DNA of 64,000 bases from Trypanosoma brucei. Lineage: Eukaryota. The stretch lies in contig CP000070.1 of NCBI GenBank assembly GCA_000002445.1, forward strand, positions 1,888,001 through 1,952,000. Direction: 5' to 3'. A program made the translations under genes and the position numbers. This document shows, one piece after another, positions 28,651-49,029 of the stretch; within the stretch, counting starts at the first letter, position 1; each line of letters begins with the position of its first letter. The notes beneath the pieces are model-generated. The model ran no database searches. It was not told the origin of the DNA and worked only from the letters and a program-made list of their open reading frames with translations.

Positions 28651-30966
28651 TCAAATCGCCAACACATACATTAAGATCAGCAGACAACATAACCGAGGTG
28701 CGCTCATACCTTCGGGGATACCAACTGCACTGACGACCGGTTGTATCTTTTCCCTGTTGCTATATAGCAGTTGCAGTTCGTCCTCATCGAGCTTTCGATT
28801 GTACAGAAGAACATTTCTGACGATCACATTATTGCCTCCCTCCCCACTGTCATTTACCGGCGCTCCAATAAAAAAGTGTGAGAGATGTAGATGTGCAGAA
28901 GATTCAGAAGCGCCTACACTCACTTCTTTTATTATGAGCTCTCCATTGACATGAGCATCCACTTTACCATCACGCAGTGTGAGCGCAATCTGATGGGTTT
29001 GATTCCAATCCATCGACGTGGTTGGGCCCTCTTTACGGACGGAGCCGTACGTTAGGACCCACTTCTTGCCGCCAACTGTGAGACTCAAAGTTTCGCTCGT
29101 TTTCCCCTCTGCGTTTGAAAATCCCATCAGCGGTGCCTCCGCCTTCGGTTCCCCCGCGAACCGAACGGTGGCAAGCAGCGTAAAGTGCGTGTTGGCGAAG
29201 TAATACCTCTGGTCCTGTCCCTGCTCGCTCACAGGCCACAGCACACGGCTGTTTCTTTTGCCTCCCAGCTGCACGCCTTCCGAAACCTTCACACCATCAG
29301 AGATACTGGCATTCACGCAGTCGTACACATCAGCCCACACACTCGCACCAACAGGGCCGGCGAGTAAACCAACAAGGCCATCGGTAGGGACACCGGAGCA
29401 GGTGGGGTCGTTCTTTTTCCGTGATGAAGAGCAAAGGCCAGCAAGTAAGGCGTCCTGGGCCTTCCATTTCCGCACCGTCGCGTTAACCTTCTCCAACTCA
29501 TCCACAAGGTGCACAAGATGAAGACCATACACTTCGTCAATGTTCTGCTCGTGCAGACAATAAAGCAGTCCATCACGGGCCAACAGCAAAGAACTGTAAG
29601 CGCTGTTATCGTCGCCCTCCGATATCTGGCCAACAAGCCACATACGGTTACCATCTGTCATCCACAGCTGTAGACGGTCCCGGCTCCATGCCCCCTTTGT
29701 GTTTTTCGGGTGGGTAATCAACATCACAGGCACATCCCCAAGCGTCACAGTAATAAGAGCCCCCGAACTACCGGGATAGTTGGCCGTTGGAGACGGTTTC
29801 GTACGGTCGGGTGAGTTCCCAATTACGCGGGAAATCGTTCCGAGTGATTCCTCCCACGTTGCCCCAAGGTTGTTAGATTCGAACACCTTGCGGAACCCAC
29901 CTTCTACGTTAACGCCAGAAGTGTCTGTCCGCGCGCTCATCAGCAGTTTCCCATTCCACTCAGTAAGAGAAGCTTCCGATGTGAGAAGCGCCGTTTCACC
30001 ACGGGCAAAATGCCAACTCACACCATCGTCAACAGAGTACATAACCATGCTTACAACGGCATTGTCTTCATTCCTCGCCTGCACCGGAAACAATATTGTA
30101 CCGTTCAATGTTACAACGCCGTTACCAGCTCCTCCAATGAACTGCGTGCCCTTGCTTCCTGCAACAGTGAAGTCGTAGAGGGGTTTCAGTGGTGTCTTTG
30201 TCCAAGAGATCCGCACATCACTGGTTTTACCGTCGGCACCCTTAGTCACTACACCCTTGTACATGAAAGGTTCCCAATCCGCTATACCCGCTGCGTTGTT
30301 TTCGTTGTGCCAATACCCCTTCGTGACATTGTATCTTGCCACAAGCACAAAGACACTGTCCGCCTTAGCAACGACAGTAGGATCCACAACACGAGAGTAT
30401 GTGGGATCCACGCGACCATTTTCAATGATGACCTCTGTTTTCCATGTTTTGCCCCCGTCCGCACTGTATTTAGCAACGGTGTCGGTGAAGAAGTAATCCG
30501 TGGAGGTAAGATACCGGGCATCACCAATACCCATCAGCACCCCATCAACCTCAACAAACGAAGGAATACGAAAGGAATGCACAGTGCGCTCTACCTTATC
30601 ACTACCCTCAATAGCAGATGAAAGTATCTTCGTTTTGCCGAGCGTTATGTACCCACCTGTCATTCGAGCGAACCATTCGCTACGCTTCTCAGACCCTCCC
30701 CAGGGACCTTTCTCTTCTTTGAACCATCTCTCCCATTCCTTATCATACTTATCCTTCCAATTGGGTCCATCCTGCCACCACCACACTTCACCATCCTTCT
30801 CGCTCAGCTTCTTTCTCAAAGCCCACGCACCGCCGGACAGAAATGCCTCACGCGTCGTCCCCTTGCCCGCAGCCTTGGAAGTCAGAGCGCAGCAGTGACA
30901 AACTGCAGTGAAAATCAACAGCAGTCTCGAGATTGGCATGCGCATTTGTTGGTGGAGTTCCTCCAT
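28651..30966 (-). CDS. Trans-sialidase/gp85-superfamily surface glycoprotein, 771 aa, apparently intact
   Basis: Hydrophobic N-terminal signal (MRMPISRLLLIFTAVCHCCALTS); FRIP motif (FRIPSFVEV); Asp boxes SADGGKTW and SVDDGVSW; subterminal VIVRNVLLYNRKL (VTVxNVxLYNR family signature); hydrophobic C-terminus (LCCLLILMYVLAI) compatible with a GPI signal. No SAPA repeats. Confidence 0.9.
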   Translation of the reverse strand: MEELHQQMRMPISRLLLIFTAVCHCCALTSKAAGKGTTREAFLSGGAWALRKKLSEKDGEVWWWQDGPNWKDKYDKEWERWFKEEKGPWGGSEKRSEWFARMTGGYITLGKTKILSSAIEGSDKVERTVHSFRIPSFVEVDGVLMGIGDARYLTSTDYFFTDTVAKYSADGGKTWKTEVIIENGRVDPTYSRVVDPTVVAKADSVFVLVARYNVTKGYWHNENNAAGIADWEPFMYKGVVTKGADGKTSDVRISWTKTPLKPLYDFTVAGSKGTQFIGGAGNGVVTLNGTILFPVQARNEDNAVVSMVMYSVDDGVSWHFARGETALLTSEASLTEWNGKLLMSARTDTSGVNVEGGFRKVFESNNLGATWEESLGTISRVIGNSPDRTKPSPTANYPGSSGALITVTLGDVPVMLITHPKNTKGAWSRDRLQLWMTDGNRMWLVGQISEGDDNSAYSSLLLARDGLLYCLHEQNIDEVYGLHLVHLVDELEKVNATVRKWKAQDALLAGLCSSSRKKNDPTCSGVPTDGLVGLLAGPVGASVWADVYDCVNASISDGVKVSEGVQLGGKRNSRVLWPVSEQGQDQRYYFANTHFTLLATVRFAGEPKAEAPLMGFSNAEGKTSETLSLTVGGKKWVLTYGSVRKEGPTTSMDWNQTHQIALTLRDGKVDAHVNGELIIKEVSVGASESSAHLHLSHFFIGAPVNDSGEGGNNVIVRNVLLYNRKLDEDELQLLYSNREKIQPVVSAVGIPEGMSAPRLCCLLILMYVLAI

Positions 30967-31402
30967 TCCTCCGACGGAGTGGATGTTTTGTGAGCAGAAA
31001 CAGCTGATATGTCCGGATGCAGGCGGTAATCCCAGGACCTCGCACCTTACGCTGACGCAGCTTAGTATGATTGGCTTCTACGGCACGTCCACAACAGGAT
31101 AATGCACCGTTGTCTTGCAAAGGGAAGCACAAAAAAACGGACAAAATGGAAACAGCAATGAAAATGGAAATCAAAAATGCAACTAGCGTAGTGGTTGGGA
31201 AAGAAGTGCAATCTGCAAAGTTAGAGAAACGCACAGGAGAGGCGATTGCACCTTTCCTTCAAGAATACGATGTTGTGGAGTACCTGCGTGTAAAGCAGGA
31301 TACGGGTGCCAACTGTGATAGAGGTCATGACACCTGACTGCTCAACACTTATATCGCGAGGTAGTGGTACAAGTTCTTCTAATGCAAAGGGCAGTCTCCT
31401 GT
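29800..31402. repeat. Segmental duplication copy B (direct repeat of 8098-9700), covering the 5' ~1.17 kb of the trans-sialidase CDS plus ~436 bp upstream
   Basis: See copy A. Confidence 0.9.
31114..31205 (-). promoter_or_regulatory. Putative polypyrimidine tract plus AG trans-splice acceptor upstream of the trans-sialidase ATG
   Basis: On the minus strand there is a ~85-nt pyrimidine-rich run (tttcccaaccac...tttgtccgtttttttgtgcttccctttgcAAG) about 150 nt upstream of the ATG at 30966. This is the typical trypanosomatid layout; the exact site was not determined. Confidence 0.3.
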
Positions 31403-43230: not shown

Positions 43231-45954
43231 AAGATTGCAACATTCCCGCCCACTTCGTAAAACACACTCCCATGCGCTTATATGGAAGGGGGTAACGCTC
43301 AAACCTATCTTGCCTTCCCCTGTTTACGCACACTTTCACATCGCACTTCCTCTCACAAGATGTTCGCATGTTGTAGCAACCACCCTGCGCAATCGATGAG
43401 AAGCTATCCGTGTCTACGGGTGACCCTTCGAATTATGGCGGAGGAGTAAAAACCTAATCGTGTGTAAAGTGCTGTGGTCAAGGAAGGAAATAAAGTGCTC
43501 TTTTTTTTTTTTGATTGTTTCTGTTTTCGCTTTTGCTTTCCATATCCCTCGTTGCTGACATCTTTTTTAACAGTGTCACTCACTCTCCGGTCCGCACAAA
43601 TAGACCAAGTTCTAACGTTGAATGCCTTCAATCAGCGTCTCTTCCCCTCTTCTTGCGGTAGTGTATGAGCAGCTACATCCTTTGTTATGCCACCTTTTAG
43701 ATGAAACAGCCGGAAACTGGTGTCGCAAAGGTTTTGGAGGGTCAAGCGTACGACGAGTTTGGCGCCCCTACACCCGGCCTACGAACACAATTGCTTCCCC
43801 TCCATGAGAAGGGAGGAAGGTTTGGGTGGGGGCGCGGGTTTTGAATGCATATTTCTTTTCCACTCGCCCAGTGGGGCGAAAAACGTCTCTACACGCCCGC
43901 GAAGCCACAACGAAATTGCGCGCCACACAAAGGTTGAGAGCACATACCGCCCGAGCGTTCGTTTTTTTCTTGCCAGCGAGGTCCAAAGACTTTTGCCCAA
44001 TCCAAACCAACATGCCGATGTTGAATCCTAAACCGCGGAAGCCTTCCACCGCTCATGCGCCTCCGGGGAGGGAGGGGGTCAAACGGCGTGGCCTGCATGG
44101 AACCGGCTTCAGAACTATGTGATTGGACACGCCATGCAGCAGGTTTCGTCGGAGTAGACGAAACGCAGGCGGTGTTTTAGTACTAAATGGCGTCTGCTTA
44201 GGACTCCAAAAGCGGTGCGGCGGCGGAGTGGCCACTCCGCCGTGGCGATGGGCAGAAACAGATCCCTTCCCATACGACAGAATCTGATGGACAGTGTACT
44301 AAACTCTGGATTTTGCCCCTTCGTCAGATACTGCTAGCAGCCCAGGTGTCCGCAATTCTGCCGTCTCTACCACGGCCCACGGATCAGTGCGACATGCGCG
44401 AGGAAAGAAAAGGCAGTTCCGTTGGATTTTTGTGGGCAACGAGAGTCTCCAGAAGGGTGGGTAAGTCTGTCGATATGTCCCAACGCATTCGCCCTCGTTG
44501 GTGTGGGAAACAGGGTTTTTCTTGTTTGGCGTTCGCCGCACCAATGGCACGCTGGGTGGGTTAGGGTCCGGAACTTTCTCAGGATGCAGCCGCGACGGAT
44601 GAAGGTTCCTCCACCGAATCAGGCCGGGGCACGCTCCTTGTCGCAAGAAATTTGGGAGTTGCACTTTTTCGTCGTCCGGTTTCTCGTTTATTTTTTTTTT
44701 CTTGGTGTGTATTCGATCCCTCCCAGCCTACAGTATTTTTTTTGGCGAGTGTAATAGTATCTGTCATGCGTGCTCCTCCAACTTGTGTCATGGTTGATGT
44801 ATTGGTTGCTTCAACTTCAGCCTGTTCATTTATTGCTTTCATACGTCGGCTAAAGACAAGTTGAAGCCCCAGTCGAGGTAAGCAATGTTGGACGTAGTCT
44901 AGAAGTGACCAAACATCCATGAACGAGTGACCTCTTTCTACTTTGGGCTCCGCTCTCATAACTTTTAGGAGAGGCACAGGTCAGTAAAGGCGGATGCCTT
45001 GCACCTTCTGGCATCCCTGGCCTCGATCAGTCCAAGAAGTCTTTGTCGTCCGTGTCGGAGCGGCCGACATCGCGTACCGTATATAGCGTGGGAACGCTAC
45101 ACCACACCCACCGGTGGGCGTTACGATGCCCTTTATAACATGACCAATTCACTATGTTTCCCTCCCCAGGTAAGGGAGCCATGGTTCTGCACCTCAAAAT
45201 GTCGTTTGAGGAGCAATTTTTCCTTGCCTTGCGAATGGTTAGTTTCCCAACTTTTTGGCATTTCCTTTCCTGTTGAAGCCAAAATTGACTTTTTACGTTT
45301 GGTGAGATAGTGTCTCGGAGGCAGTACCATAGAGGACACAACTGGATGAACCTGCCGTTGGTGCGTGTCGCTGCTCCCCCACGGCCGGGTGTGGGCGCAC
45401 GCCTTGGATCTATTGCGTCCCATCCTCCGACCTAGCAATCTGGATGAAGTGGCAGGTTGGCGCTTTCGTCGGGGACGCCCCCCACGCACTCCGCATTTTA
45501 GCAGACAGTGAAGAACCGTGGCGAGTGCGGCCCGTCCGCTTTGCCCCCCCCCCCCCCCCCCGGACATACGGGGCGTGTTTCCTCTTGCGCTGTTTTAGGT
45601 CGTGCCTTACCTCACCCCCGTTCGGCTACAATGTATCCTTGCGCCCTTCCCACTCCATGGAGAATCTTACACCGCATCTGAGCAAGGTGAAATCTGGCTG
45701 CGTCTACGAGAGGGCCCCATGGCAGGGGGACGGACACCCCCCGTTGAAGTTTCATATGGGTTGCTGATGGTTTGAACTTTGCGACTGCCGCGAATCCTTC
45801 GTTGACTTCCAGTGTTAGTGATACGATGGAACGACACCGGCGTTCCGTAATTAATTGGCCCTGGGCGAGTGAGTGCAATTACTCCCTCAGTTTGGTGCCA
45901 ACGAGTGAACATTTTTCTCCATTTTCTAGGCATTCAGTCTACATGTGCCATCTC

Positions 45955-46150
45955 ACAGTAAGCCGTCTTGACCTTTGTCCTGAGGAGGGTTGAGCCTCGA
46001 ACGATGTCTTCTATATGACATGACTGGTTTTTCAGCCTCCGAGTTTGATTTTTTTTTTCCGTTACCTCCCGAACGCGCTTCACGAATAGGTGAAATTTTG
46101 ACACTTTGCGGGAGCGAAACACTTCCGTTAGGATTAACGCAGTGAGAAAG
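45955..46150 (-). repeat. Diverged partial copy (~190 bp, roughly 85% identity) of the ~385-bp dispersed repeat
   Basis: ctgaggagggttgagcctcgaacgatgtcttctatatgacatgactggtttttcagcctccgagtttg...ttaacgcagtgag aligns with 21510-21677. Confidence 0.55.
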
Positions 46151-47124
46151 TCCGCCGAAAGGGGGGAAGGTGACCGTCCGTTTTTCAATTCTAACTGCGC
46201 AATCATTTTCCGTGGCGATGGCTTTCTCCTGGTTCGATTGTTTTGACGGAGAAGGAACCGCGGCAACTTCACTGAGTGGCGCCGCTGCCATGTTGAGTGA
46301 GTCAACTTTTCTTTTCATTCTTTGGTTTTGGCAGCGCGGGGCACCCAAGCGAACGAGCGGATGTGCGATGACACGCTGGTATCAAATGGTTCCAAATTTT
46401 CCTATCCTTTTATAGACATACTCGTCGTAGCCTCCTCGTTGGACTATTTGTTCCCACATCACAGGCGGAAGTTACAAACAGTATCGAGACCGCTGCGATT
46501 CTTCATGTGAGTGCTGAAATCACCCTTCATGTACAGCGGGTGTTTCCATCCTGCACCCGAGCCTAACCCACCTTCGGCACTAGAGAGGGGAATGTTGTGG
46601 AGCTTGTAAACATTGCCGCCTTTATCTTCCACACCTGCACAGCTCTTTTTTTGTTTAGAACCGTGCCTGATCCTATTTCCGTTGGCACCGCCTATGAGCG
46701 CTATGTGAATACAAATCCCCAAGCATTCCGATATTCCACCGCCCTTTTTCACTTCAGAACAAAGGCAGAAGCACCTGGATCCGAGGGGCGCCGAGTTTTC
46801 CCCTCATCGGCAAGTGTTTCTCCTCGGAACCGTGTTTGCCGAACGGGAGCTCCCCAGTAATGTCAAAAGTTTTTTCCATGAACCATTCCAAAGTGCGTGC
46901 TTTTTCTTTTTCTACGATATTGGTGCTAGCTCCTTCCCAGTCGGTCATTAGGCAAGGGCACTCGAAGGGTGTGTGTAGCATTCCTTACGGGCCTTAAGTG
47001 TTGTTGGAGGTTGTCGGTTGTTTTGGTGGCAATCGGGACCTCCTCCTCCTGCTACTTTTTCGATGCCCAGTGGCGTTGGGTTGTGAGCACAACGTCGTCA
47101 TGTTTCGTTTCAAACTGCGTATAT

Positions 47125-47552
47125 CCCTGGTGATGCTGGCCACATCAACGTGGTGCCAGGGTCCAGTACCCCGTATCATCGGGGGAAGCCAAGAGCCAGC
47201 AGCGTTCTTCTCATGGGGAACACTGCTGTGCTCCGGCTACGGCATCATACAGCACAGGGATCAGCAGCGTCTTTCTGGGACACCGTTTTTCATTTGTCGG
47301 TCCCTGGGAACGTGACAGCGTGCCATCAGCAGTATCATCCGCACTAAGATGCTGCTGTCCGGTGATGTGGAAGAGAATCCCGGCCCGTCGTTGCGCGGGA
47401 TGCAGTGGAACTGCGCCGGGCTATCTCAAGGAAAGAGATTAGCACCCCACTTCGTGTTGGGAATACTACGTCGCATGAATCGTGCTACAGCCCGTCTGGG
47501 GGTAGCGGACTGTCTGAACACTTCTGCTTGCAGTGATTTTTGTGATTTTTAA
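47125..47552 (+). mobile_element. 5'-terminal fragment of an L1Tc-type non-LTR retrotransposon: Pr77 hallmark (47125-47201), then an ORF starting at 47349 with a 2A peptide (DVEENPGP, 47364-47387) and the N-terminus of the AP-endonuclease domain; truncated by a stop at 47552
   Basis: CCCTGGTGATGCTGGCCACATCAACGTGGTGCCAGGGTCCAGTACCCCGTATCATCGGGGGAAGCCAAGAGCCAGCAGC matches the remembered Pr77 signature of L1Tc/NARTc. The downstream ORF reads MLLSGDVEENPGPSLRGMQWNCAGL... (2A motif followed by an APE-like WNCxGL). Confidence 0.75.
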
Positions 47553-49029
47553 ACCCTTTAAGCCGACCACCGCAGTGAGGGCGGTGCTCCCGACGTCTAT
47601 TCACTGAGGGCCTCCTTGTTTCTGTGTGCGTCACCACTTCTTATGTCTAATTTCGAGTCGTATCTTGTGTAATTGACTCACATGATGGGCTAGTGTGGGC
47701 GTGTTGTTCCGGGGAAAGGTTGAAAAAGCGATGCGTGCTTGTGCAGTTTCACTGCCAAGTTAATCCTGCCAAATGGCTTGGACTCCCCACATCCTGCGCG
47801 TGCTAAGTGAGGCAAGTCTGCCTTGCTCCGTGGTTCTCCAATAATAAGGTCTGAGCCACCAATATCGTAGGCTTTGGCCCCACGTATTTTGTATCTGCGG
47901 ATGCCCTTACGAATGCTGCCACACCATTCTTTTTGAGGCTGCAATACACGTAAGCAGATCAATGTGCCGTGGTGGCACAGTTTTTGTTCTGGTGTATTGA
48001 CTGCTGCTTCAAACTTCCGTGGAAAACCTTTCTCCAGGCTCGTTAACACGCACTCTACAATACCCGTAGAAAAACTGAAGATGTATCGTCCATCCGGTCT
48101 CACTTAGCGCGAGGAACCTTCGCCACATCTGATCTTCTGCCAAGTCGGTTTGAGTTCCCGGCCCTTTCTTTAAGGTCCTAAGAAGGGATTGGCCGTCCGC
48201 CACCGGCGGTAGGGATTTACTTTTATCATCTTCGCGCGGCATTGTGTTTTTTTTTCAAGCTTTTTGGCACCGCAGTGGATTTAGCCCTGTAACTACGGAG
48301 CCGGGAACCACAGTTGACACCCGCCCTTTGTATAAGTTCATTTGAGCAGAGAAGTGAACAGTATTCCAACCCCTTCCGATCTCAGAGGACCCGCACCGCC
48401 GTCGGTTGCTAGAATCCACGCTTTGTCTCTGTGACGTGAATCTGCTCCTTCGATAACTCAGCGTCTTTCCCAAAATAACTCTTTTTCCCTTCGGAGAGAA
48501 AAATCTATCTCGAGCTCCGTTCCTACGGTAGCCCCGCACGCTGTGCCTCTCAACCACGGGGAAACCACCCTGCGATGCAGAAGGTTCTCAAATGCCGTGG
48601 CCTGTGATGACCTATCCGGTGGCACGTTCGTCTAACAAGGGAGCTACGCCATCACGAAATATTGAAGGCACACGGGGGACGACCCCCGTTTTCGGTTCAC
48701 TCAGCGGTGTGCATACCCACTCCAAGTTACTTACATTTGGTTTTTCGTACATGACAACAGGTTCGCGTATACACGGAGAATAAACAAAAGACAGGTATGC
48801 TTCTGCATTAATAAAAAGCAAGACCATCGCGCCGTATGTTCACATCACAAAGAGCAAATGACAAAAAAAAAAATTCTCATCTCCTTCTTCAACGACAAAC
48901 TCACATTCACCAAACCCTCGCACCCCACCCCCAACAAAAAAAAACCATATTCAGCCACACAAGCGCAATGCAACCTAACATTTATAAGAAAAAAACAAGT
49001 TCCGCTAAATTGATTCAAATGAATAGATA

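Follow-up and report, generated by a model that had tools for sequence, protein, structure and literature searches.

A 3'-truncated ingi fragment, very probably a dead relic, near the centromeric repeat array of Trypanosoma brucei chromosome 7

Analysis of a 64,000-nt stretch of Trypanosoma brucei chromosome 7 (contig CP000070.1, positions 1,888,001 to 1,952,000; hereafter the window) revealed on the plus strand, at 47125-47450, a fragment that is very probably a dead relic of the T. brucei LINE ingi (Tbingi), consisting of element nucleotides 1 to 326 only. The fragment can neither move nor make an endonuclease or a reverse transcriptase (RT). It corresponds to positions 1935125-1935450 of Tb927 chromosome 7 (NC_007280), and exactly this interval is listed in Supplement 1 of Khan et al. 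2015 (PMC4660242) as INGI 1-326, plus strand, "5' ok, 3' tr". Furthermore, the 100-nt upstream flank given in that catalog is identical to the window. We conclude that the fragment is already known and that, though genuine, it is an ordinary relic; neither the fragment nor its setting is mentioned in a T. brucei pangenome preprint from 2026. The fragment itself matters little, but its analysis corrects two assignments of the original prediction: the family, which is ingi and not L1Tc, and the setting, which is the pericentromere of chromosome 7.

The 5' end of the fragment was read directly from the sequence. The element starts at 47125 with CCCTGG (opening letters CCCTGGTGATG), and its first 77 nt (47125-47201, plus strand) constitute the Pr77-type 5' hallmark of the ingi/L1Tc clade. 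In this hallmark, the DPE motif CGTG, as defined in PMC4748587, is intact at +25 to +28 (47149-47152). From 47133 onward, a single frame reads MLATSTWCQGPVPRIIGGSQEPAAFFSWGTLLCSGYGIIQHRDQQRLSGTPFFICRSLGT*QRAISSIIRTKMLLSGDVEENPGPSLRGMQWNCAGLSQGKRLA, so that the hallmark and the downstream open reading frame share one frame, which is interrupted by the in-frame TGA at 47313-47315. In intact copies, this codon is TGC (Cys). Exactly 147 nt past the hallmark, an ATG (47349-47351) opens an ORF of 67 codons, which starts with MLLSGDVEENPGPSLRGMQWNCAGLSQGKRLA and ends with a TAA at 47550-47552. The conserved ingi ATG and the 2A-like peptide MLLSGDVEENPGP occupy 47349-47387 according to the protein alignment. 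The C-terminal consensus of 2A peptides is D(V/I)ExNPGP, and in the fragment DVEENPGP (GAT GTG GAA GAG AAT CCC GGC CCG, 47364-47387) is in frame with the protein sequence on either side; 5 codons separate the ATG from the motif, and 13 codons lead through its last Pro. The same 2A-like peptide is found in the annotated ingi proteins P0022, P0032-P0036, P0043 and P0048. Downstream of it, MQWNCAGL begins at 47400. Here, protein and DNA alignments revealed the first approximately 15 to 17 codons (MQWNCAGLSQGKRLA..) of the ingi AP-endonuclease (APE) region, at 47400-47450; the Exo_endo_phos domain of intact copies starts at the M of MQWNCAGL (P0050 residues 18-220). Thus, the hallmark, the ATG, the 2A motif and the APE start were all located where the original prediction had placed them, and the sequence and the ORF list agree on this. 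Its statements that a stop follows after 67 codons and that RT is absent downstream were also borne out, by the ORF list and tblastx.

The reading frame is of ingi origin only in part. Its translation agrees with P0022, an annotated T. brucei ingi N-terminus, at 98 of 104 positions, among them the 31 residues of MLLSGDVEENPGPSLRGMQWNCAGLSQGKRLA, and contains one in-frame stop, the TGA in place of Cys. The similarity to P0022 ends after ...GKRLA, and the retrotransposon-derived part stops abruptly at 47450, directly after ...TTAGCACCCCAC. Past this position, blastn and tblastx detected no ingi nucleotide similarity and no plus-strand protein similarity. The tail of the 67-codon ORF (47451-47552, plus strand) is non-ingi sequence and, judged from these comparisons, its last 34 to 37 codons are a fortuitous read-through into flanking DNA up to the TAA. 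The frame proposed earlier is therefore genuine to 47450 and a chance continuation beyond it, and the interval 47125-47552, which had been given for the element, includes approximately 100 nt (47451-47552) that do not belong to it. In line with this, the 67-codon ORF was absent among the annotated proteins by exact look-up, and Pfam found no domain on its 67-aa product or on the ORFs adjoining the breakpoint. The N-terminal 2A peptide of ingi is active according to Heras et al. 2006, as cited in PMC3708506. Translation of the 2A peptide from the copy studied here is unlikely, given the upstream in-frame stop and the meaningless downstream protein that would follow.

To assign the family, DNA comparisons were made with three full-length ingi copies (L002, L004 and L005) and one RIME (L003), and the hallmark (47125-47201) aligned from nucleotide 1 in all four. 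Over 326 nt, 47125-47450 is 94.2% identical (blastn, E ~1e-143) to the full-length ingi of T. b. equiperdum (L002; 5262 bp with poly(A)); for nucleotides 1-326 of the other two copies, the identities are 93.6% (L004) and 95.8% (L005). At the protein level, a first search with the 67-aa ORF matched only one T. theileri "Tbingi" protein, and later searches matched annotated T. brucei ingi N-termini. With ingi, a 5.25-kb autonomous LINE, the fragment shares nucleotides 1-326, and with them the hallmark, the leader ORF, the 2A peptide and the APE start. It lacks the remaining approximately 4.9 kb (APE body, RT, RNase H and zinc-finger region), the RIME-B end, the poly(A) and the target-site duplication. 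In place of the single long ingi ORF with APE, RT, RNase H and zinc-finger regions, it retains approximately 15 to 17 APE codons, and the in-frame TGA is present in the fragment but not in intact ingi copies. The resident members of the clade in T. brucei are ingi and its deletion derivative RIME. Identity with SIDER or TSIDER was ruled out: rather than being degenerate, the fragment is nearly identical to active ingi, also in the coding sequence that is specific to ingi.

Three other readings of what the fragment is were weighed against an ingi relic. The original prediction had favored a truncated L1Tc. [quoted passage not shown] However, they belong to another species and differ in sequence: the hallmark similarity between L1Tc and ingi is 76.6% (PMC1874656), and in a comparison limited to the primer-defined ends, the published L1Tc nucleotides 1-11 (CCCTGGCTGAG) and 68-77 (GCGCCTGCTG) differ from the window (CCCTGGTGATG and AGAGCCAGCA, respectively). 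Because window ORFs are identical to chromosome 7 proteins of T. brucei brucei TREU927, the host is this subspecies and not T. cruzi, and the resident family is ingi; together with the 94 to 96% identity to ingi, this refutes a 5'-only truncated T. cruzi L1Tc, to which we attach next to no probability. A second proposal, also raised in the original prediction, was a short non-autonomous derivative; this could be RIME or a new SINE-like ingi derivative distinct from RIME and NARTc and mobilized in trans. In its favor, the 5' end needed for a transcribed, mobilizable element is complete, and lengths near 320 to 326 nt recur among the 3'-truncated catalog entries. RIME (TbRIME), the 0.5-kb non-autonomous deletion derivative of ingi, indeed shares its first 248 nt (RIME-A) with 47125-47372 at 96% identity by blastn, but from approximately nucleotide 248 it continues into RIME-B and poly(A). 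In the fragment, there is no RIME-B-like sequence; instead, 78 nt (47373-47450) that match ingi and not RIME follow the RIME-A part, and for this reason the fragment is not a RIME. A new short family is contradicted by the lack of a poly(A) within 1.4 kb and of a target-site duplication, and by a junction at nucleotide 326 that was seen only once. Moreover, 47451-49029 matched nothing elsewhere in the window or in eight T. brucei loci, the flank is cataloged at a single locus, and the lengths of the cataloged stubs vary widely. The catalog (PMC4660242) holds several dozen other 5'-intact, 3'-truncated ingi entries (approximately 25 to 30 distinct loci) of 46 to 450 nt, and such a spread of lengths is better explained by haphazard truncation after insertion than by a defined short family. 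A short derivative is accordingly very improbable. About as improbable, in our estimate, is that the end at nucleotide 326 is a mis-join of the TREU927 assembly. The pericentromeric DNA is repeat rich, the T. b. gambiense DAL972 assembly links the same stub to other DNA at nucleotide 243, and it has gaps near the array. Against a mis-join, the size of the array, 3.0 kb, is as published, and single Sanger reads would be long enough to cross the whole stub. The TREU927 chromosome 7 sequence, which we take to be finished and clone based, also counts against it. Separately, in the RIME used for comparison (L003, T. b. gambiense chromosome 1), an internal run of approximately 16 A (3240-3260) is located exactly at the RIME-A/RIME-B junction.

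Alignment placed the truncation point of the ingi relic, whose determination had been proposed as a check, at ingi nucleotide 326 (47450). The poly(A) and the target-site duplication that were to be sought past the fragment are not present: the nearest A-run is at 48863, and the flanks share one chance 8-mer. Target-primed reverse transcription truncates the 5' ends of non-LTR elements, so a 5'-complete, 3'-truncated copy would have arisen after insertion. A full-length, 5'-complete ingi may have inserted by target-primed reverse transcription among degenerate ingi relics; a subsequent deletion or rearrangement would then have taken everything 3' of nucleotide 326, and a point mutation from TGC to TGA at 47313 would also have disrupted the frame. 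The compared loci contained no "parent" sequence for the DNA from 47451 on.

The fragment is located 1.6 kb from an AT-rich array of 29/30-bp repeats (49030-52104, detected with TRF; approximately 71% AT in the composition profile). The array had been labeled a minisatellite, but it is the published centromeric repeat of chromosome 7: Table 1 of Obado et al. 2007 (PMC1868937) gives for this chromosome an array of 3.0 kb with a 29-bp unit, between Tb927.7.6860 and Tb927.7.6870. According to the same source, every mapped T. brucei centromere zone contains at least one INGI or DIRE together with an AT-rich array, and the zones adjoin rRNA genes on chromosomes 1, 2, 3, 6 and 7. In addition, KKT2 occupies divergent repeats of centromere 7 (PMC12975129). 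In T. b. gambiense DAL972, the array length is more than 7 kb with gaps on chromosome 7 (L006) and approximately 0.55 kb before a gap on chromosome 2 (L004). The SSU rRNA gene starts at 63181, 16 kb downstream of the fragment, and between them lie the repeat array, a minus-strand gene (54255-54773; Tb927.7.6870, XP_846307 by exact look-up) and a DIRE. The earlier location "inside the rDNA spacer" was accordingly too loose. Exact look-up also identified other ORFs of the window, as a trans-sialidase (XP_846305) and an ESAG5-like protein (XP_846306; 41788-43230, plus strand).

On the other side of the array, blastn and alignment revealed a second, inverted ingi 5' stub (57560-57787, minus strand; element nucleotides 1-231), in which the DPE is mutated to GGTG. 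It is cataloged as INGI 1-220, chromosome 7 1945567-1945787 (PMC4660242). Over 193 nt, the complementarity between the stubs is 93%, and each of them points to the array from its side. A 35-mer from the hallmark, for which shuffles gave an expectation of 0 matches, has one further copy in the window, which is the inverted one at 57722-57756. The 5' end of the second stub abuts a DIRE that is colinear with ingi nucleotides ~441-3929 (57799-61231, minus strand; tblastx chain), 12 nt off its 3' side. Within this DIRE, an ORF at 59224-59691 (minus strand) matches RVT_1 with E = 8.7e-6, which is under the gathering score. The second stub looks like a younger ingi that was nested in the old DIRE and truncated afterwards.

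Local tblastx searches detected two further DIRE relics, weak but significant at the protein level, both on the minus strand and thus opposite to the fragment. One, from the RNase H-like region (ingi nucleotides 3291-3452; E = 9.6e-9), is at 48039-48200, 0.6 kb past the breakpoint, and the other, from the region that follows the RNase H-like one (ingi nucleotides 3588-3737; E = 2.7e-5), is upstream of the fragment, at 44538-44687. Since opposite-strand relics flank it, the first stub lies within or beside an older inverted DIRE. A T. b. gambiense locus on chromosome 2 shares 97% identity with the block 52924-61447, and the second stub recurs together with its flank on chromosomes 1, 2, 3 and 7 (PMC4660242); its presence on several chromosomes makes it part of a centromere- or rDNA-associated block common to chromosomes. 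The zone around the fragment matches the pericentromeric INGI/DIRE zones of Obado et al. 2007, with the 29-bp AT-rich array and the rRNA genes alongside. For chromosome 4, these authors describe head-to-head DIREs at the array, and chromosome 7 likewise has relics on both sides. We found no substantive difference between the fragment's setting and the organization set out in that table and description. The general point, that T. brucei centromeres are located in strand-switch regions with ingi/DIRE relics and adjoining rRNA genes, is already published, and the fragment is one instance of it.

For the comparison between subspecies, the only view of the stub was provided by a DAL972 chromosome 11 locus (L001, L008), since at the chromosome 2 and chromosome 7 loci gaps or the repeat array precede the equivalent position. 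The chromosome 11 locus is colinear with window positions 18652-47367 at approximately 98% identity. The 5' junction is unchanged there and the TGA is present; the locus then diverges within the stub, at element nucleotide 243. Since the 5' junction and the TGA are common to T. b. gambiense, the insertion is older than the divergence of the subspecies. At least 28.7 kb (trans-sialidase, ESAG5 and stub) are thus assigned to chromosome 11 in the DAL972 assembly and joined, inside the stub (L001 15330-15572) at nucleotide 243, to unrelated DNA; the DAL972 chromosome 7 and chromosome 11 loci overlap on window positions 18652-19267. At a comparable position of TREU927 chromosome 11 (2,189,400), a 243-nt ingi stub with a different upstream flank is cataloged (PMC4660242). 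This suggests an exchange, or a mis-joining, between two ingi stubs. The chromosome 11 placement may reflect a segment that was translocated or duplicated by way of ingi relics, or else an error of the assembly. Short stubs of ingi are possible markers of sites at which the subspecies became rearranged relative to each other, with misassembly as the alternative. Furthermore, hallmark nucleotides 17-18 are CA in both 927 stubs (47141-47142 and 57770-57771) and TC in all three gambiense stubs (L001, L004 and L006). This lineage-specific difference suggests gene conversion (concerted evolution) between the inverted stubs, or assembly cross-talk.

The stubs raise the question of a function at the centromere. 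The fragment might be a domesticated module in which Pr77 serves as a Pol II promoter, an HDV-like ribozyme or both for transcripts that run into the array, with the second stub convergent to it. Apart from the intact CGTG, all candidate HDV-like helices can pair in the fragment (P1, 1-7/31-37; P2, 11-16/71-76; P3, 17-19/26-28; P4, 45-49/56-60), although this assignment is our own and was made by eye. The orientation of both stubs toward the array and the retention of the 5' junction in T. b. gambiense would also fit, and PMC4035085 cites unpublished work on active ribozymes in LINEs of the T. brucei clade. The hallmark is unusually well preserved in the fragment, which at the sequence level is compatible with some retained function. 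However, according to the account of Garcia-Salcedo et al. 2003 in Heras et al. 2007 (PMC1874656), the first 55, 250 and 500 bp of ingi/RIME were tested in T. brucei and gave no reporter expression or transcription; Pr77 promoter activity was found for L1Tc in T. cruzi, but not for ingi/RIME in T. brucei. Small RNAs do not accumulate at the chromosome 7 centromere (Tschudi et al. 2012; PMC3447711). Moreover, the DPE reads GGTG in both the second stub and the T. b. gambiense copy, which have helix mismatches too, so that the motif is under no visible constraint. Rfam found no ribozyme or other family on the element, either across the window at gathering thresholds or in 46900-47800 at permissive E-values; the matches were at chance level only. 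Finally, the rRNA gene toward which transcription had been proposed is 16 kb away, past the array, the minus-strand gene and the DIRE. We therefore regard domestication as improbable and a promoter role of the fragment as doubtful, and the promoter activity suggested for it earlier is unsupported. If the region is transcribed, residual activity of the relic would be limited to protein binding by the hallmark or to ribozyme folding. In a related reading, gene conversion has kept the hallmarks of the convergent stubs similar, and the stubs either act in transcription directed at the centromere, as boundaries, ribozymes or promoters, or provide sites for recombination by which pericentromeric segments pass from one chromosome to another; in either version, we give it little chance.

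Several other repeats were observed in the window. A dispersed repeat of approximately 395 nt is present at 4291-4685 and 21281-21675 (99% identical, inverted), and a partial copy (45972-46149; 81 to 93%) is located 1 kb upstream of the ingi fragment. A perfect 2520-nt inverted repeat (1776-4295 versus 4640-7159) with a 344-nt spacer mirrors three tRNA genes (2511-2881 versus 6054-6424). In addition, 8098-9700 corresponds to 29800-31402: here, a 427-aa trans-sialidase-like gene (7981-9264) repeats part of a 771-aa trans-sialidase gene (28651-30966) in nearly identical form, which suggests that the segment was duplicated recently.
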